Shown here piece after piece: positions 4,806 through 29,190 of a DNA stretch of 48,636 nucleotides (position 1 is the first letter of the stretch; each line of letters starts with the position of its first letter). The DNA lies in contig DASSMA010000083.1 in assembly GCA_035689115.1 (NCBI GenBank), positions 1 to 48,636 on the forward strand, written 5' to 3'. The translations under genes were made by a program, and so were the position numbers. Source of the stretch: Acidimicrobiales bacterium (GTDB taxonomy: Bacteria; Actinomycetota; Acidimicrobiia; Acidimicrobiales; GCA-2861595). The notes below the pieces were generated by a model, which was not told the origin of the DNA, did no database searches, and worked only from the letters and a program-made list of their open reading frames with translations.

Positions 4806-6581
4806 CTAATGACCCGGTTTCCGCCCCCTCCGCGAGCGCGCCACTCGCCCGATGGTCACCGGGGACAGCCGGGGTGGGATCCAGGGCGGCCTCGGTGTGG
4901 CCAGACGGTCGAGGGCGGTGGCGACCATCCAGTGGTGTCCCTGGGCGGCGTCGCAGCCGAGGGCGGTGAGGCAGGCGGCCTCGTCGGCGGTCTCGACGCC
5001 CTCGGCGACGGCCAGCATGTCGAGGGAGTGGGCGAGGTCGATCACCGCCGACAGCACGGCCTGCTTCCGGGGGTCGTGGTCGAGGCCGGTCACGAAGGCC
5101 CGGTCCAGCTTCAGCACGTCGACCGGCAGGTCGAGCAGCTTGGCCAGTGCCGAATAGCCGGTGCCGAAGTCGTCGACGCAGATGCGGATACCCCGCTCAC
5201 GGAGCATCCCGAGGAGGCGCGCCGCCGGCTCGAGGTTCATGAAGGCGCTCTCGGTGACCTCCAGCCAGAGGCTCCCCGGCTGCAGCCCGGTCTGGAGCAG
5301 GAGGCTGTCCACCATGGGCAGCAGGTCGGCGCCGAGGAGCTGCCGGGGCGCCACGTTGACCGACACCACGGCGTCGCCCACACCGAGTGCCGCCTGCAAG
5401 TCGGCGTGGTCGTGGCAGGCCTGCTGCAGGACCCAGCCCCCGAGCCGGGAGATCAGGTCTGCGTCCTCGGCCACGGCGATGAACTCCCCCGGGAACAGCA
5501 GCCCCCGGGAGGGGTGGTGCCAGCGGAGGAGGGCTTCGACCCCGAGCGGGCCACCGGTGGCGAGGTCGACGATCGACTGGTAGGCCAGGCCGAACTCGTC
5601 CCGGTTGAGGGCCCGCTGGAGGTCGTGCTCCATGTCGAGCCTGATCAGGGTCCGGTCCCGCAGGGTCTCGTCGAACACCTCGACCCGGTTGCGGCCCAGT
5701 TCCTTGGCGGCGTAGAGGGCCATGTCGGCGTTGCGGAGAAGCGCCTGCGGCTCTTCGAGCCCCCAGGAGAGCGCCACGCCGACGCTCGTGGCCGCGAAGA
5801 TCTCCCTGCCCGCCAGCCGGATGGGTTCGGCCAGGATGCCCCTGATGCGTTCGGCGAGGGCCCGCGCGTGCTCGACGCCGTCGATGCCCTCGCACAGGAC
5901 CAAGAACTCGTCGCCGCCGAGGCGGCCGGCCGTGTCACCGCCCCGGAGGGTGGAGGTCAGCCTGGCGGACATGGCGACCAGGAGCTGATCGCCGGCCTCG
6001 TGGCCCAGGCTGTCGTTGATCAGCTTGAAGCGGTCGACGTCGAGGAACAGCAGGCCGACCGCGCTGGGCTGGCGGGCCGTCCGCGCCAGCGCGACGCCGA
6101 GCCGGTCGAGGATGAGTGTCCGGTTGGGGAGGCCGGTCAGCGGGTCGTGGAGGGCCTGGTGGGCGAGGAGGAGCTGGCCGCGCTTGCGCTCGACGGCGTA
6201 GCGGACGGCCCGGGCCAGGAGGCTCCCGTCCAGCTGGTTCTTGAGGAGGTAGTCCTGGGCGCCCGCCTGCAGGGCCTGCAGCGCCAGGTCGGTGTCGTCC
6301 CGCCCGGTGATGACCACGACGGCGAGCTCCGGATCGTGCGCCTGGATCCGGGCCAGGCCGTCGAGGCGATCGGCGTCGGGCAGGGACAGATCGAGGATCA
6401 CGCAGTTGTGGACCCGGTTGTCGAGCACCTCGTACACGTCGGCGATGCGCTCGACGTGGGTCAGCAGCAGGTCGCCGCCCACCCAGGCGCGACGCAACAG
6501 CTCGGCGACGAGGCGGGCGTCGACCGGGGAGTCCTCGACGAGCAGGACCCCTTCGCCAACGGCCCCCGTCGCCGTTATCAC
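4806..6581 (-). CDS. Response-regulator receiver fused to GGDEF and EAL domains (diguanylate cyclase / phosphodiesterase)
   Basis: The REC domain reads 'VLLVEDSPVDARL...ILDLSLPD'; the GGDEF motif is intact ('RLGGDEFLVL'); the EAL domain is present ('GVEALLRW', 'EVTES'). The GTG at 6581..6579 overlaps the TGA of the receiver gene as GTGA. The ORF-track N-terminus up to 7232 is an out-of-frame shadow of the upstream gene. Confidence 0.9.
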   Translation of the reverse strand: MITATGAVGEGVLLVEDSPVDARLVAELLRRAWVGGDLLLTHVERIADVYEVLDNRVHNCVILDLSLPDADRLDGLARIQAHDPELAVVVITGRDDTDLALQALQAGAQDYLLKNQLDGSLLARAVRYAVERKRGQLLLAHQALHDPLTGLPNRTLILDRLGVALARTARQPSAVGLLFLDVDRFKLINDSLGHEAGDQLLVAMSARLTSTLRGGDTAGRLGGDEFLVLCEGIDGVEHARALAERIRGILAEPIRLAGREIFAATSVGVALSWGLEEPQALLRNADMALYAAKELGRNRVEVFDETLRDRTLIRLDMEHDLQRALNRDEFGLAYQSIVDLATGGPLGVEALLRWHHPSRGLLFPGEFIAVAEDADLISRLGGWVLQQACHDHADLQAALGVGDAVVSVNVAPRQLLGADLLPMVDSLLLQTGLQPGSLWLEVTESAFMNLEPAARLLGMLRERGIRICVDDFGTGYSALAKLLDLPVDVLKLDRAFVTGLDHDPRKQAVLSAVIDLAHSLDMLAVAEGVETADEAACLTALGCDAAQGHHWMVATALDRLATPRPPWIPPRLSPVTIGRVARSRRGRKPGH

Positions 6582-7036
6582 GTCACCGGCTCGGAGACGT
6601 CCCGGGGAAGCTCGACCACCTGGAGCCAGAACGCCTCGATCTTGCCGACGATCTCGACCAGCGCCCGGAAGTCGACGGGCTTGACGACGTAGCAGTTGGC
6701 GTGGAGGTTGTAGGCCCGCAGGATGTCCTCCTCCGCCTTCGACGTGGTGAGGATCACGACCGGGATGGCGCTGAGCACCGCGTCGAGGCGGATCGCCTCG
6801 AGCACCTCGTGGCCGGAGCGGCCGGGCAGGTTCAGGTCGAGGAGCACGAGGTCGGGCGGTGGCGTCCCGTCGTACTCGCCCCGCCCGTGGAGAGCGTCCA
6901 GCGCCAGGTCGGCGTCGCCGGCCACGACCAGCTGGTTGGCCACCTTGGAGCGCTGGAGCGCTTCCCGGGTGAGGCGGACGTCGCCCGGGCTGTCCTCCAC
7001 CAGGAGTATCCGGACGGCCCGGTGCGTGGCCGTCAC
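6578..7036 (-). CDS. Stand-alone response-regulator receiver (CheY-like)
   Basis: 'VRILLVEDSPGDVRLTREAL...LVLLDLNLPGRSGHEVLEAIR...VVILTTSKAEEDILRAYNLHANCYVVKP' is a receiver domain. The GTG at 7036 overlaps the histidine-kinase stop as GTGA. Confidence 0.85.
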   Translation of the reverse strand: MTATHRAVRILLVEDSPGDVRLTREALQRSKVANQLVVAGDADLALDALHGRGEYDGTPPPDLVLLDLNLPGRSGHEVLEAIRLDAVLSAIPVVILTTSKAEEDILRAYNLHANCYVVKPVDFRALVEIVGKIEAFWLQVVELPRDVSEPVT

Positions 7037-9000
7037 TGCTCCCACTCCACCGGAATCGTGAACCAGAAGGTCGCACCTCCGCCGGGCGTCGCCTCCACCC
7101 CGACGTGTCCGCCCCGCTGCTCGACCACCTTCTTGCAGATGGCCAGGCCCATGCCCGTGCCCGGGTACTCCGTCCGCCGCTGCAGGCGTTGGAACATCCC
7201 GAACACCCGCTCCCGGTAGGCGGGGTCGACACCGATGCCGTGGTCCTCGACCTCGAACCGCCACCCGCCCGGGACCCCGGTGGCGGACAGGCGCACCTCG
7301 GGTTCGACGCCGGGAAGGGTGAACTTCACGGCGTTGGCGACGAGGTTGTGGAGGACCTGGCGGGCCGGAACGGCGGCCCACGTGACCGACGGCAGCGGGT
7401 CGACGCGTACGCAGGTGCCCGGCTCGACGCCGGCCAGACCGGCGAGCACGTCGGCCGCCAGCTCCTCCATGTCGACCACCTCCGTGGCTTCGTGCTGCCC
7501 CGCCCGGGAGTACTCGAGCAGGTCGGCGACGAGCGCCTGCATGCGCTCGACTCCCGAGGTGATGAAGTCGAGATACTCGCGCCCGGGGCCGTCGAGCCGG
7601 GCGGCGTAGTCCTCCGCCAGGAGGCGGGCGAACCCGCTCACCACCCGGAGGGGCTCGCCCAGGTCGTGGGACGCCACGTAGGCCAGCTCGGCGAGGTCGT
7701 GGTTCGACCGCTCCAGTTCGCGGTTGCGCCGCTGGAGCTCGGCCTGGGCGGCTCGGCTCTCGCTCACGTCCCGCAGGATCACGGTGAACGTCGTCTGCCC
7801 GTCAGACGCCAGCTTGGAGATCGAGGCCTCGGCGGGGAACAGGGAGCCGTCGCGCCGGCGTCCCTGGATCCCGCCGCGACGGACACCCATGGGTCGGGCC
7901 ACGTCGGCGGCCGCCGCGAACTCCTCGACGTGGCGGCGGTGGACGTCGCCCAACGCCGCCGGGAGCAGCACGTCCAGGGGTTCACCCGTCACGTCGTCGG
8001 CGTCCCACCCGAAGATCCGTTCCGCGCCCTGGTTGAACTGGACGATGCGCTGCTGCTCGTCGACGCTGATGATGGCGTCCACCGCCAGGTCGACGAGGGC
8101 CGCCAACCGGGCTTCGGTGGTGCGGGCGAGCTGTTCGAGCTGGCGCTGGCGGCTGAGGTCGCGGATGACCGCCGAGGCGCCCACCACCGCTCCGGTCGCG
8201 TCGCGGACCGGCGATGCCGTGAGCGCCACCGCCACGAGCCGGCCGTCCTTGCGGAGGCGGACCGTGTCGAGGTCGTCGACCCGCTGGCCGGACCGGACCC
8301 GGGCGGTGACGCCGGCCAGTTCGCCTTCCCGTTCCGGCGGGACGATCACGCCGATGTTGTGGCCGACCACCTCGGGCTCGGACCATCCGAAGACGTGCTG
8401 GGCGCCGGCGTTCCAGCTGCGGATCGTCCCGTCGAGGTCCGTGCTCATCACCGCCACCGTCGTGGACCGGACGAGGGCCCCGAACTCGGCCAGGCGGTCC
8501 CGGGCCCGAACCAGTTCCGGGTGCGCGGCCCCCCCGCCGTCGTCGTCCCCGGGGAGGGAAGGCGGCGCCCCCGCCAGCCGGGCTGCCGGTGCGGGGCCTC
8601 CCTCGGGCGGCGGCGGAGCCAGGAGCTCCAGCATCCGCTCCGGCGTGGCGGTCTTCTCGATGTAGCCGTCGGCCCCCAGCGAGGCGACCTCGGCCGACAT
8701 CCGCGAGGCGGCGAAGCCCGACAGCACGACGACCCTGGCGGCGTTGGCCACTTCCTTGATGCGGGGGAGCGCCTCCAAGCCGTCCATGACCGGCATCGCC
8801 AGATCGAGAAGGACCAGGTCGGGCTGGAGGCGGTCGGCCAGCACGACGGCCTCCGCACCGTCCTCTGCCTCGCCGATCACGGTGAAGCGGCCGGTGCGTT
8901 CCAGCATCTTCCGCAGCAGCGTCCGGAGCCCGGAGGCGTCGTCGACGACGAGGACGCGGGTCGCGGTCGCCGGGGGGGCCTCGCCGAGGGTCGCGGTCAC
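7033..9000 (-). CDS. Hybrid sensor histidine kinase: N-terminal receiver, two PAS/PAC domains, HisKA, HATPase_c
   Basis: The REC domain reads 'RVLVVDDASG...LVLLDLAMPVMDG'. The H-box is 'ELAYVASHDLGEPLR', and the ATPase G-boxes are present ('HGIGVDPAY', 'GTGMGLAICK'). No transmembrane segment, so it is soluble. The GTG at 9000 overlaps the upstream stop as GTGA. Confidence 0.9.
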   Translation of the reverse strand: MTATLGEAPPATATRVLVVDDASGLRTLLRKMLERTGRFTVIGEAEDGAEAVVLADRLQPDLVLLDLAMPVMDGLEALPRIKEVANAARVVVLSGFAASRMSAEVASLGADGYIEKTATPERMLELLAPPPPEGGPAPAARLAGAPPSLPGDDDGGGAAHPELVRARDRLAEFGALVRSTTVAVMSTDLDGTIRSWNAGAQHVFGWSEPEVVGHNIGVIVPPEREGELAGVTARVRSGQRVDDLDTVRLRKDGRLVAVALTASPVRDATGAVVGASAVIRDLSRQRQLEQLARTTEARLAALVDLAVDAIISVDEQQRIVQFNQGAERIFGWDADDVTGEPLDVLLPAALGDVHRRHVEEFAAAADVARPMGVRRGGIQGRRRDGSLFPAEASISKLASDGQTTFTVILRDVSESRAAQAELQRRNRELERSNHDLAELAYVASHDLGEPLRVVSGFARLLAEDYAARLDGPGREYLDFITSGVERMQALVADLLEYSRAGQHEATEVVDMEELAADVLAGLAGVEPGTCVRVDPLPSVTWAAVPARQVLHNLVANAVKFTLPGVEPEVRLSATGVPGGWRFEVEDHGIGVDPAYRERVFGMFQRLQRRTEYPGTGMGLAICKKVVEQRGGHVGVEATPGGGATFWFTIPVEWEQ

Positions 9001-9595
9001 CTCGCGCCGGCGTCCTCGACCGGCCGGGCCGGGCGGTCGCGCAGCAGGTCACCGGGACGCGGCCGGCCGTCGAGGCGGGCGCTGCCGAGCAGGTCGCTGA
9101 TGAGGTCCCGGGCCGAGACCAGCGTGTGCTCGAGCGCTTCCTGGGAGGTCTGCTTCTCGTCGAGCAGGAGTGCGAGATGGGCCGCCGAGAGGCCCTGGAC
9201 GATCTCGTCGTTGATCTGGAGCGCCTGCCGCTGGCGCTCACGCAGGTCGTCGAACAGCTTGGCGCCCCGCATCAGGGGGCCGTACGTCCGCCGCAGTGAC
9301 CAGTAGTAGACGCCGATCGCCGCGGTGGAGAGGTCCCACACCGCCTCGTGCCAGTCGAGGTTGGTGCGAATCGCACTCCCGGCCACGCGGTCGAGGCCGA
9401 GCGTGGGCAACAGCAGGTGCTCGGCGTGCAGGGCGTGCCCGATGCCGCAGCGAAGAAGATCATCGCCGTCGCCAGGCCCAGCCGGTTGGACCTGACCTGG
9501 CCCGAGCGGGCGAGGGGTACGAGGACGGCGAGTGCGATGGCCATGTAGACGACGAACAGCATCAGATTGGCCACAAGCGTGAGCTTCCACCACAT
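8997..9595 (-). CDS. Membrane-anchored HisKA_3-like sensor remnant with no ATPase domain. The reading frame is broken by a -1 shift near 9439-9441.
   Basis: The 5' part (frame of ORF 9272..9769) encodes 'MWWKLTLVANLMLFVVYMAIALAVLV...MIFFAAASG'. The 3' part (frame of ORF 8997..9692) encodes 'HALHAEHLLL...ERQRQALQINDEIVQGLSAAHLAL'. Restoring one G in a GGG run joins them. 'ERQRQALQINDEIVQGLS' aligns to the DesK/NarX H-box 'ERERIARDLHDTLGQKLS' with His replaced by Asn. A GGAG lies 7-10 nt upstream of the ATG at 9595. Confidence 0.5.
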
Positions 9596-9756
9596 GGCGA
9601 CGCTCCATGAATAGGACTGGCCGGGCGCCAGGCCTGCTCCCGCGCGCGGAGGTGGTCCACCATTGTTGGGCCGGGCTGCCATGCACTGCCATAGCCCGGA
9701 CGGGTCATTTCCGCTGGTGCGCGGCGCCGGCCGCGGCGATAGCGTCGGCACCCGAG

Positions 9757-11229
9757 ATGGCTCCCGCACGAAGGCCCACGATCGGCCGAGCCCAGGTCGA
9801 GGCGGCGGTCTCGAAGCTGCAGGACCGCATCGGAGAGACGATGGCGAGGACGGGCGTGCCCGGGCTGGCGGCCGGCGTGGTCTTCGACGACGAGGTGATC
9901 CTGGCCCGCGGCTTCGGCGTGAGCGCCCTCGGCGGGTCCGACGAGGTCGGACCCGACACGGTGTTCCAGATCGCCTCGCTGTCGAAGTCGCTGGGGTCCT
10001 CGGTCATGTGCGCGCTGGTGCGGGAGGGGGCGCTGGCCTGGGACGACCCCGTGCGAACGGGGATCCCGGAGTTCGCGCTCGCGGACCCGTGGGTCTCCGA
10101 GCACGTCACCTTCGCCGATCTCTTCAGCCACCGCAGCGGGCTGCCCGAGCACGCCGGCGACCTGCTCGAGGATCTCGGCTACGACCGCGACACCGTGCTG
10201 GCGCGCCTTCGTCTCTACCCGCTCGCCCCCTTCCGGGCCTCCTACGGCTACACCAACTTCGGGTTGACCGCGGCGGGCGTGGCCGGCGCCGCCCGGGCCG
10301 GCACGACGTGGGAGGGCGCCTCGGAGGACCTCCTCTACAAGCCGCTCGGCATGGCCAGTACCAGCTCCACCTACGCAGGCTTCAGGTCGCGCCCGAACCG
10401 GGCCACCGGCCATGTCCGCCGGGACGGACGCTGGATGGTCACGCCCCAGCCCCGCCAGCCCGACGGCCAGTCGCCGGCGGGGGGCGTGTCGAGCAGCGTC
10501 GACGACCTGCTCCTGTGGCTGGCCACGATGCTCCGGGACGGCGCCACCGCCGGCGGGTACGTCGTCGACCCGGGAGCGCTGGCGCAGAGCTGGCTGCCGC
10601 ACGCCATCTCGAATCCGCCGGACGGTCCCACCGCCCGGGCCGGCTTCTACGGCCTCGGCTTGAACGTGGCCTACGATGGGGGCGGGCGGCTCCGCCTGGG
10701 CCACTCGGGCGCCTTCGCCCTCGGCGCGGGCACCGCCATGACGTTCTATCCGGCCGAGCGGATGGGCATCGTGGTGCTCACCAACGGCGAGCCCACCGGT
10801 GTGGCCGAGGCCACCACCGAGAGCTTCTGCGACGACGTGTTCCTCGGTGCACAGCGCAACGACTGGCTGGCGGTGATCGGCCCGTACTTCGACCGGCTGA
10901 TCCATCCGGCGCCGAAGAAGGACTTCGCCGCCGGAGGGGAAGCGGCCGGGCCCGAGGAGCGCTACACCGGCACCTACGACAGCGACCTGTACGGCCGGCT
11001 CGTGGTCGATGCCCGGCCGGGCGGCGGGTTGCAGCTCACGCTCGGTCCCGACCGGCACGCGTACCTGCTGCAACCACACGAGGGCGACGAGATGTGGTGG
11101 CAGTTCGCCGGCGAGAACGCGGGGCCGCCGGCGGCGGCGACGTTCACCGTGACCGCCGGCGATCGCGCCACCGCGGTGACGCTGGACCATTTCGACAGCG
11201 AGGGGCTGGGTACCTTCACCCGGCGTTGA
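9757..11229 (+). CDS. Serine hydrolase of the beta-lactamase / class-C PBP-like family
   Basis: The S-x-x-K motif is present ('QIASLSKSLGS'), followed by 'YGYTNFG' and 'GHSG'. The ATG at 9757 is chosen; the upstream part of the ORF looks non-coding. Confidence 0.8.
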   Translation: MAPARRPTIGRAQVEAAVSKLQDRIGETMARTGVPGLAAGVVFDDEVILARGFGVSALGGSDEVGPDTVFQIASLSKSLGSSVMCALVREGALAWDDPVRTGIPEFALADPWVSEHVTFADLFSHRSGLPEHAGDLLEDLGYDRDTVLARLRLYPLAPFRASYGYTNFGLTAAGVAGAARAGTTWEGASEDLLYKPLGMASTSSTYAGFRSRPNRATGHVRRDGRWMVTPQPRQPDGQSPAGGVSSSVDDLLLWLATMLRDGATAGGYVVDPGALAQSWLPHAISNPPDGPTARAGFYGLGLNVAYDGGGRLRLGHSGAFALGAGTAMTFYPAERMGIVVLTNGEPTGVAEATTESFCDDVFLGAQRNDWLAVIGPYFDRLIHPAPKKDFAAGGEAAGPEERYTGTYDSDLYGRLVVDARPGGGLQLTLGPDRHAYLLQPHEGDEMWWQFAGENAGPPAAATFTVTAGDRATAVTLDHFDSEGLGTFTRR

Positions 11230-11378
11230 CGCCCTGCGGCCGAGGGCTCGTCAGCCCCGGAACACCCCGTTGACGGCGGTTCCGCAGGTCGGGCAGGGCC
11301 AGCGGCCGGCCCCTCTTCGCTGGCACAGGAGCACTCGCCGCGCGGCTGAGCCCGGTCGGTGGTGGGTAGGGCCTCGAC

Positions 11379-12434
11379 GTGCCCGACCTGACCGCGACCC
11401 TCGCAGGCGCCGATGCCGCCCCCGCACCCCGGCCCGGCCCCCGTCTCCCGCTGCCCCGTGGGCCGCGGAGCGAGCGACTGGTCGCCGTGCTCCGGCGCCG
11501 ACCACACGATCCGGGGCGGCTGCCCGACGGAGACGACGCCCTCGACGGCGAGGACACCCCGCTGGCGATCCACGTCCTCTACGAGCTCCACTACCGCGGG
11601 TTCGACGGGGTGGACGAGCGCTGGGAATGGGAGCCCGGCCTGCTGCGCGAGCGCCGCCGTCTCGAGGAGGAGTTCGAGGGCCGCCTCGTCGCCACCGTCG
11701 GGCCACCCCCGATCGCGCCGACCGCGAACGAGGTCACCGGCGAGCTCGACGGCCTCCTCCACCGGGAGTGCCCCTCGCTGTCGCGGTGGATCCTCGAGCA
11801 CGGCGGCCTGCGGGAGCTTCGGGAGCTGGCGGTCCATCGCTCGATCTACCAGCTCCGGGAGGCCGATTCCCACACGTTCGCCATCCCGCGCCTGTTCGGC
11901 GGGCCCAAAGCGGCACTGGTCGAGATCCAGCGGGGCGAGTACGGCGACGGCGCTCCGGCCGGCGTGCACGCCGAGGTCTTCGGCGAGACCATGGTGGCGC
12001 TCGGGCTCGACGCCACCTACGGCGCTTATCTCGACCACACCCCGGGCACCACCCTGTCGACGGTCAACCTGGTCGACCTGTTCGGGCTCCACCGGCGCTG
12101 GCGCGGAGCCCTCGCCGGCCATCTCGCCCACTTCGAGATGGCGTCCGCCGTCCCCATGGGCCGGTACGCCGCCGCGCTGCGGGCCGCCGGGCGACCCAGC
12201 GCGGCGCGCTTCTACGACCTCCACGTGGAGGCCGACGCCCACCACGGGCCGGTCGGGCGCGACCTGCTCGCCGCCGGCCTGGCCCGCGTCGAACCGGCCG
12301 TCGCCGGCGACATCGTGTTCGGGGCGCGGGCCCTGGCCGCCGTGGAAGACCGCTTCGCAACGGCGATCATGGAACGCTGGGCGTGCGGCGATTCGTCCCT
12401 GCGCCGGCCCATCCGCTGCGACGGCGGGACATGA
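11379..12434 (+). CDS. Iron-containing redox enzyme family protein (haem-oxygenase-like fold)
   Basis: 'HVLYELHYRGFDGVDERWEWEPGLL...GEYGDG...HAEVF' is typical of this actinobacterial family. The stop overlaps the next ATG as ATGA. Confidence 0.65.
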   Translation: MPDLTATLAGADAAPAPRPGPRLPLPRGPRSERLVAVLRRRPHDPGRLPDGDDALDGEDTPLAIHVLYELHYRGFDGVDERWEWEPGLLRERRRLEEEFEGRLVATVGPPPIAPTANEVTGELDGLLHRECPSLSRWILEHGGLRELRELAVHRSIYQLREADSHTFAIPRLFGGPKAALVEIQRGEYGDGAPAGVHAEVFGETMVALGLDATYGAYLDHTPGTTLSTVNLVDLFGLHRRWRGALAGHLAHFEMASAVPMGRYAAALRAAGRPSAARFYDLHVEADAHHGPVGRDLLAAGLARVEPAVAGDIVFGARALAAVEDRFATAIMERWACGDSSLRRPIRCDGGT

Positions 12435-12900
12435 CAGGCGCCCGCACCGCCGCCATCCGCCGGCTCTTCCGGCCTGTCGTCGTGCGCCGGGAGGTCCCGG
12501 CGCCGCCGGACGAGGTGTACGCCGTCCTCGCCGAACCGTCCAGCTACCCGGACTGGCTCGTCGGCGCCCCGGCGCATCCGCAACGTGGACCGGCGGGTTC
12601 CCGGAGCCGGGAGCCGGCTTCGAGCACACCGTCGGCGCCCCGGGCCCCCTCCGGGTCGACGACGCCACCCGGAGCGCCGGCGCCGATCCCGGCCGCCACC
12701 TCGCCCTCGTCGCCAAGGCGGGGGCCTTCCGGGCCTGGGTCGAGTTCCACCTCGAACCGGACGGGCCGGGAGGCACCCTCGTCAGCTTCCGCGAGCAGCC
12801 GCTCTGGCCCGTCGCTGCCCTCACGCCGCTCCTGCGCCGGACGCTCGTCTTGCGCAACGAGGCGTCCCTCCAACGCCTGGCCGAGCGCTTCGGCGGCTGA
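12431..12900 (+). CDS. SRPBCC (polyketide cyclase/dehydrase-like) protein, with an apparent -1 frameshift near 12575-12590
   Basis: The N-terminus 'MTGARTAAIRRLFRPVVVRREVPAPPDEVYAVLAEPSSYPDWLVGA' is in frame 2. The C-terminus '...TWTGGFPEPGAGFEHTVGAPGPLRVDD...GTLVSFREQPLWPVAAL...' is in frame 1 and ends at 12900. The start is ATGA-coupled to the upstream gene. Confidence 0.5.
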
Positions 12901-12938
12901 CCTCCGGCACCAACGTAGAGTTCCGCCGTGGTGGGCTG

Positions 12939-13439
12939 ATGGGCGGCACTGGGGACGGCGCTGCGCCGGCCGTCACGGTCACGAACTGGCTCGCCCGGGT
13001 CGCCATGGGGCTCATGTTCGGGTTCTGGGCCACCGTGCTGGTCATCCTCCCTGCCGCCCTCGCTCCGCCGAAGCCATGGTCCGCGGCGCTGCTTCCCCTG
13101 GCCTTCGTCGCCGCCTTCGGCCGGGCCCTGCGCATCCGGCTCGTCCTCGGGACCTCGACGGTGAGGATCTACAACTACTTCGAGACCGTCGCCATCGAGG
13201 TGGCCGACGTCGAGGCGCTCGTGCCGGGCGCGGCGCGGGTGCTGTCTCCCGGCGGTGGGGCGTGCGCCGGCTTCCAGGTGGCCGGGCGACCGGCGCCCTA
13301 CCCGGCCATGGCGACGATGTCGTGGAGCTGGACGTTCGGGGGGCCGAGCAGGAAGTCGAGGAAGCTCTTCCGCCTGCTCTCCGACTGGGCGGCGGCACAC
13401 GGGATCCCCATGCGGCTGGAGGCGCGCCATCTCGGCTGA
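12939..13439 (+). CDS. Hypothetical membrane protein
   Basis: Two hydrophobic helices are present ('WLARVAMGLMFGFWATVLVILPAALAPP', 'ALLPLAFVAAFG'). The ATG at 12939 is in frame. Confidence 0.5.
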   Translation: MGGTGDGAAPAVTVTNWLARVAMGLMFGFWATVLVILPAALAPPKPWSAALLPLAFVAAFGRALRIRLVLGTSTVRIYNYFETVAIEVADVEALVPGAARVLSPGGGACAGFQVAGRPAPYPAMATMSWSWTFGGPSRKSRKLFRLLSDWAAAHGIPMRLEARHLG

Positions 13440-24618: not shown

Positions 24619-25221
24619 CTACGAGCCTTCGAGCGCCTCCAGCACGTCCTCGGGCGCCGGCTCGGCGCCGCCCAGGAAGGCCCGGTGGGCCTGGACGGCG
24701 AGGACGGACAGGCCGGTGGGCCCCCCGCCCCGGAGCCTCTCGGGCAGGAGGTCGGGGTGCTCGCCGAGCCAGCGGGCGGCTGCTCGAACGGCCGCCGCGG
24801 CGTCCTCGTCGGCCGGCGAGGGCACGGCGAAGCGCCACCGGCGGGTGCGCTCGGCGATGGCCGGCGCCTCCGGCTCCACCGCAGCGGCGGCGAACACCCG
24901 GCAGTCGTAGGAGCGGCAGGCGCGGGGCCGGTGCTCGTAGATCGAGCACCGGCCATCGACGAGCATCGGGCAGTGGCCCCGCTCGTCGAAGCCGAGCACC
25001 ACGTGGCCGGCGGGCCGCAGGGGAGCGGGGAAGAGCAGGGCGGGCGGGATACGGGCCAGCGTGGCCGCCTCGTCGGGGCCGATGTGGACGAACTGCGACG
25101 ACGTGCAGCACGCCGTGCACCCGTCGCACGGCACCACCGCTTCCCCGCCGGCCACCGCCCGTTCCGCCTCGCGCAGCCAGACCGAGAACCGGCCGGCGGC
25201 AAGCGGCGGGTCGTCGCCCAT
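24619..25221 (-). CDS. YkgJ-family Cys-cluster (zinc/iron-chelating) protein
   Basis: The Cys-cluster signature is present ('CDGCTACC...CPMLVDGRCSIYEHRPRACRSYDC'). Confidence 0.75.
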   Translation of the reverse strand: MGDDPPLAAGRFSVWLREAERAVAGGEAVVPCDGCTACCTSSQFVHIGPDEAATLARIPPALLFPAPLRPAGHVVLGFDERGHCPMLVDGRCSIYEHRPRACRSYDCRVFAAAAVEPEAPAIAERTRRWRFAVPSPADEDAAAAVRAAARWLGEHPDLLPERLRGGGPTGLSVLAVQAHRAFLGGAEPAPEDVLEALEGS

Positions 25222-25339
25222 CGGGGTCACGGTAGCGGGGCCGAAAGGGCAGGACCGGGTGCCCAAAAGGGCCTCCTGGGCGGCCGCCCTTGCCGGCGCC
25301 GCGCCGCCGCCGGATACTCGCCCTCCGGAGGGAGGAAGC

Positions 25340-26635
25340 ATGCGGGCTCGTCCGGTCCATCAGCAGAACGCCGGCCGCCAACCGCCAGTGCGCCGCGCCG
25401 GATCGACCGCCGCCCTCCTCGCGCCCACCCCGGCATCCCTGCTCCAACTCCAGCGCCTGGCCGGGAACGCCTCGGTCACCGCCCTGCTCGCCGGGTGGGG
25501 AGCCCCCGGGGCGACGACGGTCCAGCGCCAGCTCGCCCCAGGGATGTACGTCCTCAACGCCAGGGGCCGCCTGCGCAGCGAGGGCAGCCGTCACCCGAAG
25601 ATCGAGAGCCTTCGGCCCGGGCGCCCGGCCACGGTGCTCCCCAACGGCGGGCGGAAGTCCGCCTTCAAGATCGGGACGTCGGGCCTGGTCGAGAACTCCT
25701 GGGCGAGGACGGCCAGCGCCGGACCGGGGTGGATCCGGGACGCCCGGCTGGACCCGACCACCCTGGTCGGAGCGCTCGACGCCACCCTCCGCGGCCCGCG
25801 GAAGCCCACGGCCGACGAGCTGCGGGCGGTGATCGCCTGGGCGACGCCCGACGAGCGCAGGGCGGCGGCCGCCGACGATGCCTTCCTGGCCAGGGCCAAG
25901 AAGGCGCTGGACTCGGACACCTACCTCCAGGTCCTGCCCGCTCTCGGCGTCCACCGCACGCCGGACCGGGTCAAGAGCGGAGGCCCGGGCGCCCTCGGGC
26001 ACCCGACCGGCCACGACGCCGACGTCGCCATCCGCGCCGAACTGGCGCACGAGGTCGCCGACGCGGTGAAGGCGGGCCGGCAGGTCGAGGGCGAGGTCTC
26101 CGTGGTGGGCGACCAGGACTTCCAGGCGGCCTTCGACCGCCAGTGGGTGGTGGCCGCCGGCCAGAAGCAGTACATCGGGAAGAACGCCTGGGACATCTGC
26201 GAGGCGTTCGTCGACGTGAACCTCCCGAAGCGCCACATCTGGATCCACCGCAGCCTCGGCGACCTGGGGACGATCATCCACGAGGGCATGCACAAGTACG
26301 CGGACTCGCTCCTCCGGGACGAGCAGATCCAGCTGTGCAACGTCAACAAGATCACCCACGGGGGCACGTCGCGGCTCGACGAGGGCATCACCGAGTACTT
26401 CACCCGCCCGGTGGTGGTGAACCAGCTGAAGGTCCCTCGGGCGGACTACTACGCCAACGAGCACAAGGTCGCCACCAAGCTGGCCGCCCGCTTCGGCCGG
26501 CCCACACTGGTGAACGCCTACTTCAACGGCGACTTCGAGGGGCTGAAGCAGGCCTTCGGCAAGGGATGGCCCGTGTTCGCCGAGCGCCTCGAGCGGTCGG
26601 ACTGGCGCTGGCTGCTCATCAACGGCTGGATGTGA
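25340..26635 (+). CDS. Hypothetical HExxH (zincin-like) protein with an N-terminal 'LQRxxGN' leader motif; candidate effector/toxin
   Basis: GGAGGGAGG lies 6 nt upstream of the ATG. The N-terminus 'LLQLQRLAGNASVTALLAG' resembles the leader seen on actinobacterial DUF4157 / contractile-injection-system-associated proteins. Downstream are 'TIIHEGMHKYAD' and 'EGITEYF', consistent with HExxH plus a Glu ligand. Confidence 0.7.
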   Translation: MRARPVHQQNAGRQPPVRRAGSTAALLAPTPASLLQLQRLAGNASVTALLAGWGAPGATTVQRQLAPGMYVLNARGRLRSEGSRHPKIESLRPGRPATVLPNGGRKSAFKIGTSGLVENSWARTASAGPGWIRDARLDPTTLVGALDATLRGPRKPTADELRAVIAWATPDERRAAAADDAFLARAKKALDSDTYLQVLPALGVHRTPDRVKSGGPGALGHPTGHDADVAIRAELAHEVADAVKAGRQVEGEVSVVGDQDFQAAFDRQWVVAAGQKQYIGKNAWDICEAFVDVNLPKRHIWIHRSLGDLGTIIHEGMHKYADSLLRDEQIQLCNVNKITHGGTSRLDEGITEYFTRPVVVNQLKVPRADYYANEHKVATKLAARFGRPTLVNAYFNGDFEGLKQAFGKGWPVFAERLERSDWRWLLINGWM

Positions 26636-26636
26636 C

Positions 26637-26996
26637 ATGCCGTCGACCGCCGAGGAGTGGATCGACTTCGCCAGGGGCCGCCTGTCGCCCGAACGCACGC
26701 ACCTCACCCTCACGGACGCCCCTCCCGTCGAGGCGCCGGGCGACCTCGGGGCGGTGGCCGGCTTCGGCGGCGAGGCCGAGGGCGTCGACCTCCATGTCAG
26801 CGTGTACGTCTTCGAGGAGTGGGGCGCCGGCCTGGCGCCGATGCAGGACCTGAAGGCGCACGCCGAGGCTCAGGGACGGGAGCCCCTTGCCGTCGTGGAC
26901 GGGCCCGTCCTCTTCTTCGCCACGGCCGGGCCCGAGCAGGAAGACCGGTTGGCCCTGTTCGCCGTCGCCGACTGCTTCAGCGGCCCACGGCTCTAG
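26637..26996 (+). CDS. Small acidic hypothetical protein (119 aa), translationally coupled to the HExxH protein; candidate immunity/partner
   Basis: The ATG lies 1 nt after the upstream TGA. The protein has no family signature. Confidence 0.5.
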   Translation: MPSTAEEWIDFARGRLSPERTHLTLTDAPPVEAPGDLGAVAGFGGEAEGVDLHVSVYVFEEWGAGLAPMQDLKAHAEAQGREPLAVVDGPVLFFATAGPEQEDRLALFAVADCFSGPRL

Positions 26997-27164
26997 GAGC
27001 CCGGTGTCTTTCGCGCTCGGCGCTGAGCGCCGAGGGCCGACCTACCCTGACCAGCGCCTCTCCAGAGCAGACGAGCGGGTGACGGGGCGGTCGGCCCCGA
27101 ACGAGGGTTTCGACACCAGTCTCCTCAGGAGGGTGAGAGCGTTGAGCCACTGCGGAACGGCAAC

Positions 27165-27908
27165 TCAATCGTCACGCAGCGAGCAGGCGATGCGAACTGC
27201 CAGTCGGGTCGACGAACTCGGGGGATCGTGTTGGACGCCTGGACAGAGCAGGGCCTCCTCACCGCATCCCTGCCACGGGACGAGGGACGCCGCTCCACCC
27301 CGCCGCGACCTGCCGACTCCGGGCACACTCGGCGCACACGCCTCTCCCACCTGCAAGAGCCCGACGCCTCTGGCGTCGAGCATTCCGGGGACGTCCTCGG
27401 CGACGCGAACGCTCGAGGCCAGCACATCGCCGACAAGCGACTCGGGTTCCAACGATTCCACGTGAAGGGCGTCCCAGGTCGGACGGTACAGGTACTCCCA
27501 CTCGACCTCGGTGACGCAACGAACGTTCAGGCGTTCGCACAGCAGGCGAGTCTCATCCTCGTCCAGCATGGCGGGGGCGAGCCAGGAGTCAGGCTCGGCA
27601 ACGCGTGCTCGCAACTGGTCAATGTCGAAGAGGCCGAGCGGGTCGAGAGCCTGGTACGAGACGGGGAAGCACGAGACGATGAAATCCGAGACGACGACGG
27701 ACGCGCTTGGAGGAAGGTTGTGCTCCTCGAGACCGACCAGATCGACGTACGGATCCAGGAATGCTCGTTCCTCGGCGGTCACCCCGACCATGGCCTTGCC
27801 GCCGTGGACGGCGACGAAGATCGCGTCCACATGCGTGGAGCGGAGGTAGTCGTGCTCGCCTGCACGGCCAGCGTCCTGGACGAGGGAACGCAGAAATGAG
27901 GTCGTCAG
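27165..27908 (-). CDS. Hypothetical protein; probably the C-terminal continuation of 27905..28954 after a -1 frameshift near 27918-27920
   Basis: No canonical start follows the upstream stop. Restoring one G in 'ctgggtcc' joins the frames to read '...DPDELGSGPLTTSFLRSLVQDAG...'. The region is lower in GC. Confidence 0.4.
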   Translation of the reverse strand: MTTSFLRSLVQDAGRAGEHDYLRSTHVDAIFVAVHGGKAMVGVTAEERAFLDPYVDLVGLEEHNLPPSASVVVSDFIVSCFPVSYQALDPLGLFDIDQLRARVAEPDSWLAPAMLDEDETRLLCERLNVRCVTEVEWEYLYRPTWDALHVESLEPESLVGDVLASSVRVAEDVPGMLDARGVGLLQVGEACAPSVPGVGRSRRGGAASLVPWQGCGEEALLCPGVQHDPPSSSTRLAVRIACSLRDD

Positions 27909-28954
27909 AGGTCCGGACCCAGCTCGTCGGGGTCTGTGACGCCTTCCAACCAGGCCGTGAAGGCTCGGGCTGAAGGCGGCAGTCCGTAGGACCGTAGTGC
28001 GGACACCTCCTGCGGGGGCGGCCGCCATGACGCCAGTGGCGGGACGAGCGCCTGCAGACTGGCCACCGCGTCCGGACCCAGCGCGGTCGACCGCAGCCGG
28101 CGCGGTTCGCCGAACACGAGGCGCAGGTAGGTCCGCAACGGGCCGGTGCCGAGCAGTTCACCCCGGGACACCGCACCGAGCAGCTTGGCGGCCGTGTACC
28201 GGCGCAGGTGCGCCGGTACCCGGCTGAGCGCCCCCTTGCAGACGGCGCTGGGCTCCTCGCCGATGAGGAAGTCGCAGCGGGTCAGCTCGTCGCCCCCCTC
28301 GACCGACTCGAACGCCCGACACAGCTCGTCGACGCACGCCGGCGAGGCGTCGTCGGGCCTGAAGCGCAGCGCTGCCATTGATTGCCCGAATCGACGCAGC
28401 GGGCCCCCACCGGACGGTCCTCTCGGGGCGCTGAGGTCCGAAGGGAGTGTGCCCAAGATGACGGCGGCCAGCCAGGCGGTGCACTGCTCGACTTCATCCG
28501 TGTTCTCCGTGCCGGCGCCGATCTGCTCCAGGACGGCATGCTCGGCGCATCCCGTCCAGGCAAGCACGACGAGTGCGGCACGCGAAACGTTCCGGTCGCC
28601 ATCTGCCAGCAGCGGTATGAGCCGAGAGTGTTCGGCAACAACGGCGTCCCATGAGGCAACCTCCTCGGGAAGAACCTGGTGTGCACGCTGCACCCGCCAG
28701 TCCAACTGATCGCCCATTGTCCCGATGGCGGCGCACCGGATCAGATGCAAGATGTCGAAACGGTACGGGGCCCGGCTGTCGAGAACAGCGTCGACGAGGA
28801 GGGGAACGGTGGGCGGCGTGGCGGTACAACGATCACCTTGAGGGGTGATGGCCCAGTACAAGCCGTCGAGGCTCGCATCCACGAGCGCGGGATCCCTCAG
28901 GCCGTCGAGCAGCTCCGGGATTTCGCTCCCCCCGATGTCCTCCCAGCGCGTCAC
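27905..28954 (-). CDS. Hypothetical protein; probably the N-terminal part of one ~595-aa gene continued in 27165..27908
   Basis: GTG start. The sequence is protein-like and helical-repeat-like ('IPELLDGLRDPALVDASLDGLYWAITPQG...'). Confidence 0.5.
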   Translation of the reverse strand: MTRWEDIGGSEIPELLDGLRDPALVDASLDGLYWAITPQGDRCTATPPTVPLLVDAVLDSRAPYRFDILHLIRCAAIGTMGDQLDWRVQRAHQVLPEEVASWDAVVAEHSRLIPLLADGDRNVSRAALVVLAWTGCAEHAVLEQIGAGTENTDEVEQCTAWLAAVILGTLPSDLSAPRGPSGGGPLRRFGQSMAALRFRPDDASPACVDELCRAFESVEGGDELTRCDFLIGEEPSAVCKGALSRVPAHLRRYTAAKLLGAVSRGELLGTGPLRTYLRLVFGEPRRLRSTALGPDAVASLQALVPPLASWRPPPQEVSALRSYGLPPSARAFTAWLEGVTDPDELGPDL

Positions 28955-29190
28955 GGCACCATCGTGCCCGTCCCGGAGCGCCGTTTGTCAACGCTGGGCC
29001 GGGCCGGGTGACCGGCTGGCTCGGGAGTGGAACCTCCCGGAGGCTGGTGTCCAAAACCCTCGTTCGGGGCGGAGGGCAGGGGCAGGGTCGGCCCCTCGGC
29101 GCGGAGCGCCGATGTCGAACGGCGCCAGCCTCCTGGGCGATGCGACCTTCGGCCCTGGGCGCCCCGACGGCGCCGCTCGACACTGGGCCC

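Follow-up and report, generated by a model that had tools for sequence, protein, structure and literature searches.

A putative zinc-peptidase toxin-immunity cassette with an injection-system-type leader in an Acidimicrobiales genome

The window analyzed here is an entire 48,636-bp contig from a metagenome-assembled genome (MAG) of the Acidimicrobiales, which carries, on its forward strand, two closely spaced genes encoding a 431-amino-acid (aa) protein and an acidic 119-aa protein that we consider a candidate toxin-immunity pair. The frame of the large gene runs from an ATG at position 25340 to a TGA at 26633 to 26635 and, as an initial annotation of this DNA had stated, a single base (26636) separates its stop codon from the ATG of the small gene at 26637. 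Both open reading frames (ORFs) correspond to NCBI gene calls (VFJ85_19990 and VFJ85_19995), and the start at 25340 is the one chosen in the NCBI and Logan gene calls and fits the N termini of homologous proteins (MRA...). With a G+C content at third codon positions (GC3) of 0.95 for the large and 0.93 for the small ORF, both genes look native, like the rest of the contig. All motif strings quoted in the initial annotation could be located in the large protein, with LLQLQRLAGNASVTALLAG covering residues 34 to 52, TIIHEGMHKYAD covering residues 311 to 322, and EGITEYF covering residues 348 to 354. Neither protein produced a match above threshold in Pfam, NCBIfam, PADLOC, PHROGs, or the sequences of the PDB, in keeping with the earlier remark that the small protein has no recognizable family; searches of PDB sequences with single sequences and profiles yielded chance-level matches only.

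The large protein has 49 homologues, and the toxin family that they define comprises about 50 clusters from Actinomycetota, Chloroflexota, and one cyanobacterium. An AlphaFold2 (AF2) model built on the 49 homologues reached a predicted local distance difference test (pLDDT) score of 87.6 and a predicted template modeling (pTM) score of 0.78; the features read from the model, the homologues, and the DNA are collected in Table 1. The stretch behind the N-terminal leader had initially been described as a single unrelated region of about 300 aa. The AF2 model and fold matches resolve it into two domains, the HExxH-containing domain (residues 142 to 431) and, in front of it, a previously overlooked SH3b-like beta domain (residues 68 to 139). 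Its fold matches are the SH3b domains of LytB, of an endolysin, and of NlpC/P60 enzymes. An SH3_3 match in Pfam was obtained for five of the 49 homologues, the corresponding domain of the window protein lying below Pfam detection, and the domain is confined to one subclade.

Table 1. Positions of the two genes and of the features assigned to them (nucleotide positions in the window)
Feature	Position	Strand	Basis
Shine-Dalgarno-like sequence GGAGGGAGGA	25327..25336	+	Read from the sequence, upstream of ATG 25340
Putative toxin gene, 431 aa (leader, SH3b-like domain, gluzincin-like HExxH domain)	25340..26635	+	ORF, homologues, AF2 model
Disordered, basic, poorly conserved N terminus, residues 1-30	25340..25429	+	pLDDT 38-54; homologue comparison
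Two-helix leader hairpin with L37-Q-R-L-A-G-N43 followed by xSV, residues 31-52; putative cargo-recognition tag	25430..25495	+	
V-Q-R-Q junction motif, residues 61-64; boundary between leader and effector part	25520..25531	+	
SH3b-like beta domain, residues 68-139	25541..25756	+	
Conserved helical and alpha/beta zinc-peptidase-like putative toxin domain, residues 142-431 (290 aa)	25763..26632	+	
H314-E-G-M-H318, predicted zinc-binding/catalytic motif, on helix 309-320	26279..26293	+	Invariant in 49 sequences; AF2 model
D347-E-G-I-T-E-Y-F354, "glutamate helix," on helix 345-362	26378..26401	+	Conservation; AF2 model
Small acidic protein gene, 119 aa; presumed cognate immunity protein (inhibitor)	26637..26996	+	

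Across the 49 sequences, the residues expected of a zinc peptidase are invariant: H314, E315, and H318 of the HExxH motif and E348 and E352 of the downstream glutamate helix, in which G349, T351, and F354 are likewise fixed. The initial annotation had called this combination of HExxH and a downstream glutamate gluzincin-like, and it had asked for the conservation of the two histidines to be checked; both histidines are kept in every sequence, and the fold appears remotely gluzincin-like. E348 is presumed to be the third zinc ligand and E352 a conserved acidic partner. At the level of sequence families, a weak trace of Peptidase_M61 was seen around the HExxH motif (residues 309 to 387; E = 0.034, 15 bits against a cutoff of 22), with similarly weak M61 matches in 10 of the 49 members (best E = 0.0065); beyond these, no Pfam family matched the catalytic domain of any of the 49 members, even at E ≤ 0.1. 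The spacing between HExxH and the glutamate amounts to 29 residues and includes a conserved insert. N-terminal to the zincin-like core lie about 140 residues that form helices specific to the family, and a nearly invariant N-A-F-V-D strand precedes the HExxH motif by 26 residues. We take this strand to resemble the NAFW edge strand of thermolysin and, presumably, (D/N)EGITExF is the counterpart of thermolysin NEAISDIF and M1 NEGF. Given the invariant residues on two helices, the lack of a Foldseek match, and the absence of a relationship to DUF4157 (see below), we regard the C-terminal domain as forming a new family whose active site is of the gluzincin type. The toxin gene of two other loci is in fragments or spread over more than one frame (L012, positions 9704 to 11109; L022, positions 4821 to 5580), with the small gene of L012 remaining intact despite the frameshift. 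Such split genes could reflect decay of the toxin with retention of its immunity gene or, alternatively, indel errors of long-read assemblies.

While the C-terminal domain is constant, the N-terminal part of the family is not: the same domain is found behind a leader only, behind DUF4157 only (PF13699, also named eCIS_core after the extracellular contractile injection systems [eCISs]), or behind a leader plus DUF4157, with or without the SH3 domain. PF13699 precedes the toxin domain in 6 of the 49 homologues and, in P0023 and P0044, the order is leader, EQEADRVA-like stretch, DUF4157, and then the same toxin domain. As had been claimed from the start, the window protein itself lacks a DUF4157 core, since no PF13699 match was obtained even at E ≤ 1. 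The possibility that its C-terminal domain represents a divergent DUF4157 was rejected as well; an hhalign comparison with 34 DUF4157 segments gave a probability of 0.3%.

The leader, which forms two helices in the AF2 model (residues 31 to 41 and 43 to 52), follows the pattern [L]-Q-[R]-x-x-G-N-x-A-V. This pattern was found inside the first 80 residues of 24 of the 49 homologues, the remainder being N-terminally truncated on short contigs or starting with DUF4157, and its Q, G, and N are invariant among 23 leaders of the family. A profile of 43 positions, built from these 23 leaders only, was used in an exhaustive search of 1.84 billion representative proteins and retrieved 4,293 protein clusters at E ≤ 1e-3. 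A closer look at 94 top matches of at least 200 aa showed that, in 92 of them, the motif starts inside the first 100 residues and that it is duplicated in 26. PF13699 is present in 39 of these 94 proteins, against a DUF4157 background frequency of about 0.06% in genes other than those for eCIS-associated toxins (EATs) (PMC11297309). The other domains encountered include an ADP-ribosyltransferase, an AvrRpt2-like Peptidase_C70, a CdiA RNase, PT-HINT, C80, a nuclease, and a transglutaminase (TGL), and two of the leader-bearing proteins contain a T6SS_HCP domain. The initial annotation had linked the leader to DUF4157-type proteins, and this link is borne out by the 39 matches with PF13699 and by the occurrence of the leader inside contractile injection system (CIS) operons, described next. 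Its proposal of a new domain architecture, however, was overstated, since PF13699 is absent from 55 of the 94 proteins and fusion of the leader to a toxin domain without DUF4157 is therefore common.

Among the 4,980 ORFs of a six-frame translation of the window and 26 loci, the leader hidden Markov model (HMM) matched only the N termini of the large-gene family. Three short leader-only ORFs were placed in their genomic context, and two of them each proved to be located at the 3' end of a CIS operon. The first of these operons contains genes for CIS_tube, a VgrG-like protein, PAAR, gp25, and baseplate components. The second contains baseplate and fiber genes, followed by a gene for a 774-aa eCIS_core protein that starts with the same leader (...ILHLQRTIGNQAVQRL...YEKEADRVA...) and has repeated PLVQRQ-acidic units in front of its DUF4157 domain. 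The third short leader ORF begins close to the end of its contig. In L027/L028 (positions 10001 to 10219), the CIS operon leader ORF stops at 72 aa (...IGQPNDK, followed by the stop codon), where DUF4157 proteins normally continue. Both contigs terminate a few hundred bases past this ORF, a pattern compatible with assemblies breaking at variable cargo genes.

In all homologues that we read, the transition from the leader or DUF4157 part to the effector part is marked by a junction of the type hydrophobic-(Q/R)-R-x, represented in the window protein by TTVQRQ at residues 59 to 64. The VQRQ junction may be a processing or recognition site. PLVQRQ followed by acidic runs is also the unit repeated in the cargo protein of the CIS operon mentioned above (L031, positions 7332 to 9668). 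A role of the leader as a Sec or Tat signal peptide was considered and rejected, the leader being polar in the homologues. The same evidence bears on a quite different explanation of the large protein, in which it would be a Sec- or Tat-exported cell wall hydrolase with an N-terminal signal peptide, an SH3b targeting domain, and a metallopeptidase acting on peptidoglycan, accompanied by its inhibitor. The SH3b-like domain, with its best matches in peptidoglycan hydrolases, would suit such an enzyme, as would an Arg-Arg pair at residues 18 and 19 followed by an uncharged stretch, a loosely Tat-like arrangement present in this protein only. We consider this explanation highly improbable: the homologues lack a hydrophobic h-region, the conserved leader residues are the polar Q, R, G, and N, some leaders begin as early as residue 4 to 9, and the SH3b domain is limited to a subclade. 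In addition, the small partner protein has neither a signal peptide nor a lipobox and could therefore not protect the wall.

With respect to function, we tentatively propose, on the basis of sequence comparison, that the LQRxxGNxAV hairpin and the VQR-type junction together might constitute a conserved cargo tag for a large CIS lineage, which would work without DUF4157 and might suffice to route orphan cassettes to the machine; we hold this to be somewhat less probable than the opposite. In AlgoCIS, a disordered N-terminal region is needed for loading via an AAA+ ATPase, and DUF4157 is dispensable (bioRxiv 10.64898/2026.05.27.728243), a mode of loading by the N terminus that fits cargo equipped with a leader only. 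A literature text search did not return the leader motif strings, which might nevertheless be displayed in figures or in further papers.

The small protein contains 20 Asp and Glu residues versus 7 Lys and Arg residues, and, as it lacks a signal peptide, it can be expected to act in the cytoplasm. An HMM of this protein was used on 17 assessable nonredundant loci, of which 15 have a homologue directly 3' of the toxin gene; these loci come from three phyla, namely, Actinomycetota (Acidimicrobiia and unclassified MAGs), Chloroflexota (Anaerolineae, Dehalococcoidia, and others), and one cyanobacterial MAG. In the annotated loci, the distance between the stop of the toxin gene and the partner gene ranges from an overlap of 31 nucleotides to a gap of 20 nucleotides. 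The partner is present with every N-terminal architecture, including both DUF4157-fused forms examined, and therefore tracks the C-terminal domain. In a collection of 5.8 billion proteins, the small-protein family comprises only 17 clusters. Pairwise distances of toxin domain and partner are correlated (r = 0.80; Mantel P of about 2e-4), with the partner diverging faster (mean identity of 34%, versus 44% for the toxin domain); this correlation and the co-occurrence in 15 of 17 loci back the pairing of the two genes that the initial annotation had proposed from their spacing. Fold matches of the small protein are weak and point to Mog1/PsbP-like proteins. Most aligned homologues end in SAF[A/S]GxE, a tail that is missing from the window copy (...CFSGPRL, positions 26979 to 26993) and from its closest relative, P0223 (...CLSRPS), and that is replaced by a C-terminal extension in P0226, an otherwise full-length homologue. 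It is speculative that the conserved C-terminal glutamate tail of these homologues enters the active site of the peptidase.

A partner of this kind might also be a chaperone or adaptor needed for the stability or loading of the cargo, comparable to the effector chaperones of type VI secretion systems (T6SSs), rather than an immunity protein. An effector-chaperone layout had been allowed for in the initial annotation, and many toxins of the Photorhabdus virulence cassette (PVC) type come without immunity genes (PMC3482391). Against such a role, the small protein goes with the toxin domain at the C terminus rather than with the trafficking module at the N terminus, as is expected of immunity proteins, its divergence is faster than that of the toxin yet correlated with it, and the toxin has no transmembrane segment to shield. 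Moreover, the retention of the small gene next to the frameshifted toxin gene of L012 is reminiscent of orphan immunity genes, with the proviso that the frameshift may be an assembly error. A chaperone or adaptor role thus appears unlikely to us.

Taken as a whole, the two genes are best explained, with a probability that we put at roughly 0.6, as a polymorphic toxin-immunity cassette of the DUF4157/eCIS ("PVC-type") class, as described by Zhang et al. in 2012 (PMC3482391) and Geller et al. in 2021 (PMC8213781), whose product is CIS cargo. Our confidence is higher for a toxin with a cognate partner and a DUF4157-type leader and lower for actual delivery by a CIS. In the best-supported reading, the cassette consists of an exchangeable trafficking module at the N terminus, an SH3b-like domain that is not always present, an unchanging zinc-peptidase toxin domain, and a cognate cytoplasmic inhibitor; the large protein is probably a zinc-protease toxin and the small protein its antidote. 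Peptidase activity, toxicity, neutralization by the small protein, CIS loading, the delivery machine, and the target are what we infer. In the mechanism that we envisage, the 431-aa protein would be made in the cytoplasm, where its C-terminal peptidase, with H314, H318, and E348 as zinc ligands and E315 as the catalytic base, would be held inactive by 1:1 binding of the cotranslated 119-aa protein. The disordered stretch and the LQRxxGN hairpin would then serve as the recognition tag by which a CIS encoded elsewhere loads the protein, with no need for DUF4157 in cis. Once injected into a neighboring cell, or set free within the producer if the CIS is a cytoplasmic one, the peptidase would cleave an essential cytoplasmic target, the immunity protein protecting kin cells.

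Several observations weigh against this interpretation. First, no CIS structural family was found among the other genes of the window (among the best 25 of 59 Pfam families), as the initial annotation had already noted; these genes encode purine biosynthesis enzymes, ClpB, signaling proteins, and the like. Similarly, no CIS structural gene was met within 10 kb of the cassette in nine further annotated contexts, two of which are those of DUF4157-fused homologues, while 88% of the eCIS toxins in a published training set are located within ten genes of the operon (PMC11297309). Second, two of the assessable loci lack the small gene (L007/L014 and L016). Third, a Foldseek search with the catalytic domain returned nothing at E ≤ 0.001, and the gluzincin fold scores are modest. 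Finally, it has been stated in two papers, one of them bioRxiv 10.64898/2026.05.27.728243, that no conserved eCIS signal or loading sequence was found. Since the flanking genes differ from locus to locus, are ordinary metabolic or regulatory genes without any conserved neighbor, and include no CIS family nearby, the cassette family is consistently "orphan," and delivery by a CIS encoded elsewhere is inferred. Catalogued eCIS loci include ones from Ilumatobacter (class Acidimicrobiia), Dehalococcoidia, and Roseiflexus/Chloroflexi (supplement of PMC8213781), and by analogy a CIS elsewhere in this genome is plausible; our literature search on CISs in Acidimicrobiia found nothing.

The orphan placement also invites the view that the pair never leaves the cell, being a strictly intracellular protease with its inhibitor or regulator, similar to a toxin-antitoxin system or a regulated-proteolysis module, with the leader acting as a prodomain or regulatory segment. 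No CIS or secretion genes adjoin the cassette in the annotated contexts, its codon usage is native and its surroundings are of a housekeeping nature, and in one context a PIN/MazE toxin-antitoxin pair lies beside it. A purely intracellular role is difficult to reconcile, however, with a leader that is common to thousands of proteins containing DUF4157 and classic secreted polymorphic-toxin domains and that occurs inside CIS operons, with N termini that are swapped as in polymorphic toxins, and with the lack of any match to PADLOC or toxin-antitoxin families. We therefore grant it a minor share of the probability, comparable to that of the chaperone role.

The loci without a small gene deserve separate mention. 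In L007 (positions 11417 to 13391 of that locus, on Acidimicrobiia chromosome OY970200.1), the place of the small gene is taken by a DUF222/HNH gene on the opposite strand. L016 (positions 9215 to 12284), from a Solirubrobacteraceae MAG, encodes a divergent homologue with intact HEGMH and DEGLTE motifs and no detectable partner, and a photolyase-like gene on the opposite strand directly follows the toxin homologue. In L007, moreover, an Hcp-like gene (PF05638, 166 to 175 aa), unexpected in Acidimicrobiia, lies 1.5 kb downstream of the toxin homologue. Together with the two leader-bearing proteins that contain a T6SS_HCP domain, and with the observation that none of the annotated contexts links the cassette to a CIS operon, this gene could hint at a different, possibly undescribed delivery route, e.g., an Hcp-type tube or a pathway in monoderms resembling the type VII secretion system (T7SS), instead of a classical eCIS. 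A phmmer search with the Hcp-like protein of L007 did not recover the two Hcp-containing leader proteins. Such a route seems very doubtful to us, since the idea is based on a single locus, in which the small gene has given way to a mobile DUF222/HNH gene, since the leader is present in operons of the gp25/VgrG/CIS_tube type, and since the family also occurs in Chloroflexota and in a cyanobacterium.

The proposed CIS cargo cassette shares traits with several known systems. Its closest counterparts are the DUF4157/eCIS_core (PF13699, "PVC-metallopeptidase") cargo proteins, such as Cgo1 and Cgo2 of AlgoCIS, the EATs, and Tme of Streptomyces, which likewise have a variable C-terminal effector domain. 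Among DUF4157 cargo proteins, a disordered N terminus, the LQRxxGN-type leader, and VQR-type junctions are found as well. The C-terminal domain of Cgo1, too, is predicted to be a metalloprotease (PMC8894135). Unlike these cargo proteins, the window protein has no DUF4157 domain and is encoded outside and away from CIS operons and, unlike many PVC-type toxins, it has a dedicated downstream partner gene (PMC3482391). Similarly, the metallopeptidases of polymorphic toxins (Tox-MPTase1 to -5, Tox-HopH1, and Tox-ALF) place a C-terminal HExxH zincin behind swappable trafficking modules; several of these families are listed with PVC-type delivery, and most Tox-MPTase families are listed without an immunity family (PMC3482391). 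Here, by contrast, an additional invariant (D/N)EGxTE glutamate helix and a presumed family-specific immunity protein are present.

The combination of an HExxH helix and a glutamate on a later helix is shared with the gluzincins of clan MA(E), among them thermolysin (M4), the M1 and M61 aminopeptidases, collagenase (M9), lugdulysin (M30), and an uncharacterized Chloroflexus hydrolase (3cmn), but the window domain does not belong to any peptidase family at the sequence level. Finally, a small, tightly coupled downstream gene whose cytoplasmic product is specific to the toxin domain and evolves faster than it does is typical of the toxin-immunity pairs of T6SSs, contact-dependent inhibition (CDI) systems, T7SSs, and eCISs (for eCIS pairs, see Geller et al., 2021). 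Unlike in these pairs, the presumed immunity family of the window is uncurated and has weak fold matches, and neutralization by it is presumed.

Among the genes next to the cassette, two minus-strand genes located directly downstream (27165 to 27830, 221 aa; 27905 to 28954, 349 aa) stand out. Neither gene matches anything in Pfam, NCBIfam, PADLOC, or PHROGs, and the other loci contain no counterpart of them. Their GC3 is 0.78 to 0.81, versus 0.93 to 0.98 in the rest of the contig, with the local G+C content (27000 to 29190) dropping to 0.67. Their acquisition appears to be recent, and they might, for example, be orphan immunity or accessory genes. The divergently oriented upstream neighbor (24619 to 25341, minus strand) encodes a CxxCxxCC (PF03692) protein, and a CxxCxxCC gene also immediately precedes the gene for the 774-aa DUF4157 cargo protein in the unrelated CIS operon (L031, positions 6572 to 7282). 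As the other cassette loci lack such a gene, the shared neighbor is probably a coincidence. A scan for promoters and terminators, along with folding of the region 3' of the small gene, was unremarkable. An 8-bp perfect, GC-rich hairpin (CTCGGCGC-TGA-GCGCCGAG, positions 27016 to 27034) begins 20 nucleotides past the stop of the small ORF and could be a terminator without a T tract; its folding energy is no better than that of shuffled sequence (z = -0.18).

The kind of system described here is already known; the novelty lies in the toxin and partner families, in their strict pairing, and in their orphan placement in phyla that have received little study. The C-terminal domains of DUF4157 proteins are as a rule unannotated (983 of 1,130 predicted EATs; PMC11297309), and the cassette adds an uncurated family of putative zinc-peptidase toxins, together with a partner family, to the DUF4157/eCIS-type repertoire of phyla in which the biology of injection systems has barely been explored. 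Its leader is a short, sequence-defined N-terminal motif that marks thousands of putative CIS cargo proteins and is kept when DUF4157 is absent, which contrasts with published claims that no conserved signal exists. If the leader were indeed a cargo tag, the claim that eCISs have no conserved loading sequence would be contradicted, and a simple genome-wide rule for recognizing trans-encoded CIS cargo (more than 4,000 protein clusters) would become available. Cargo encoded far from its machine could then be catalogued, and the leader might offer a compact tag for engineering protein delivery.

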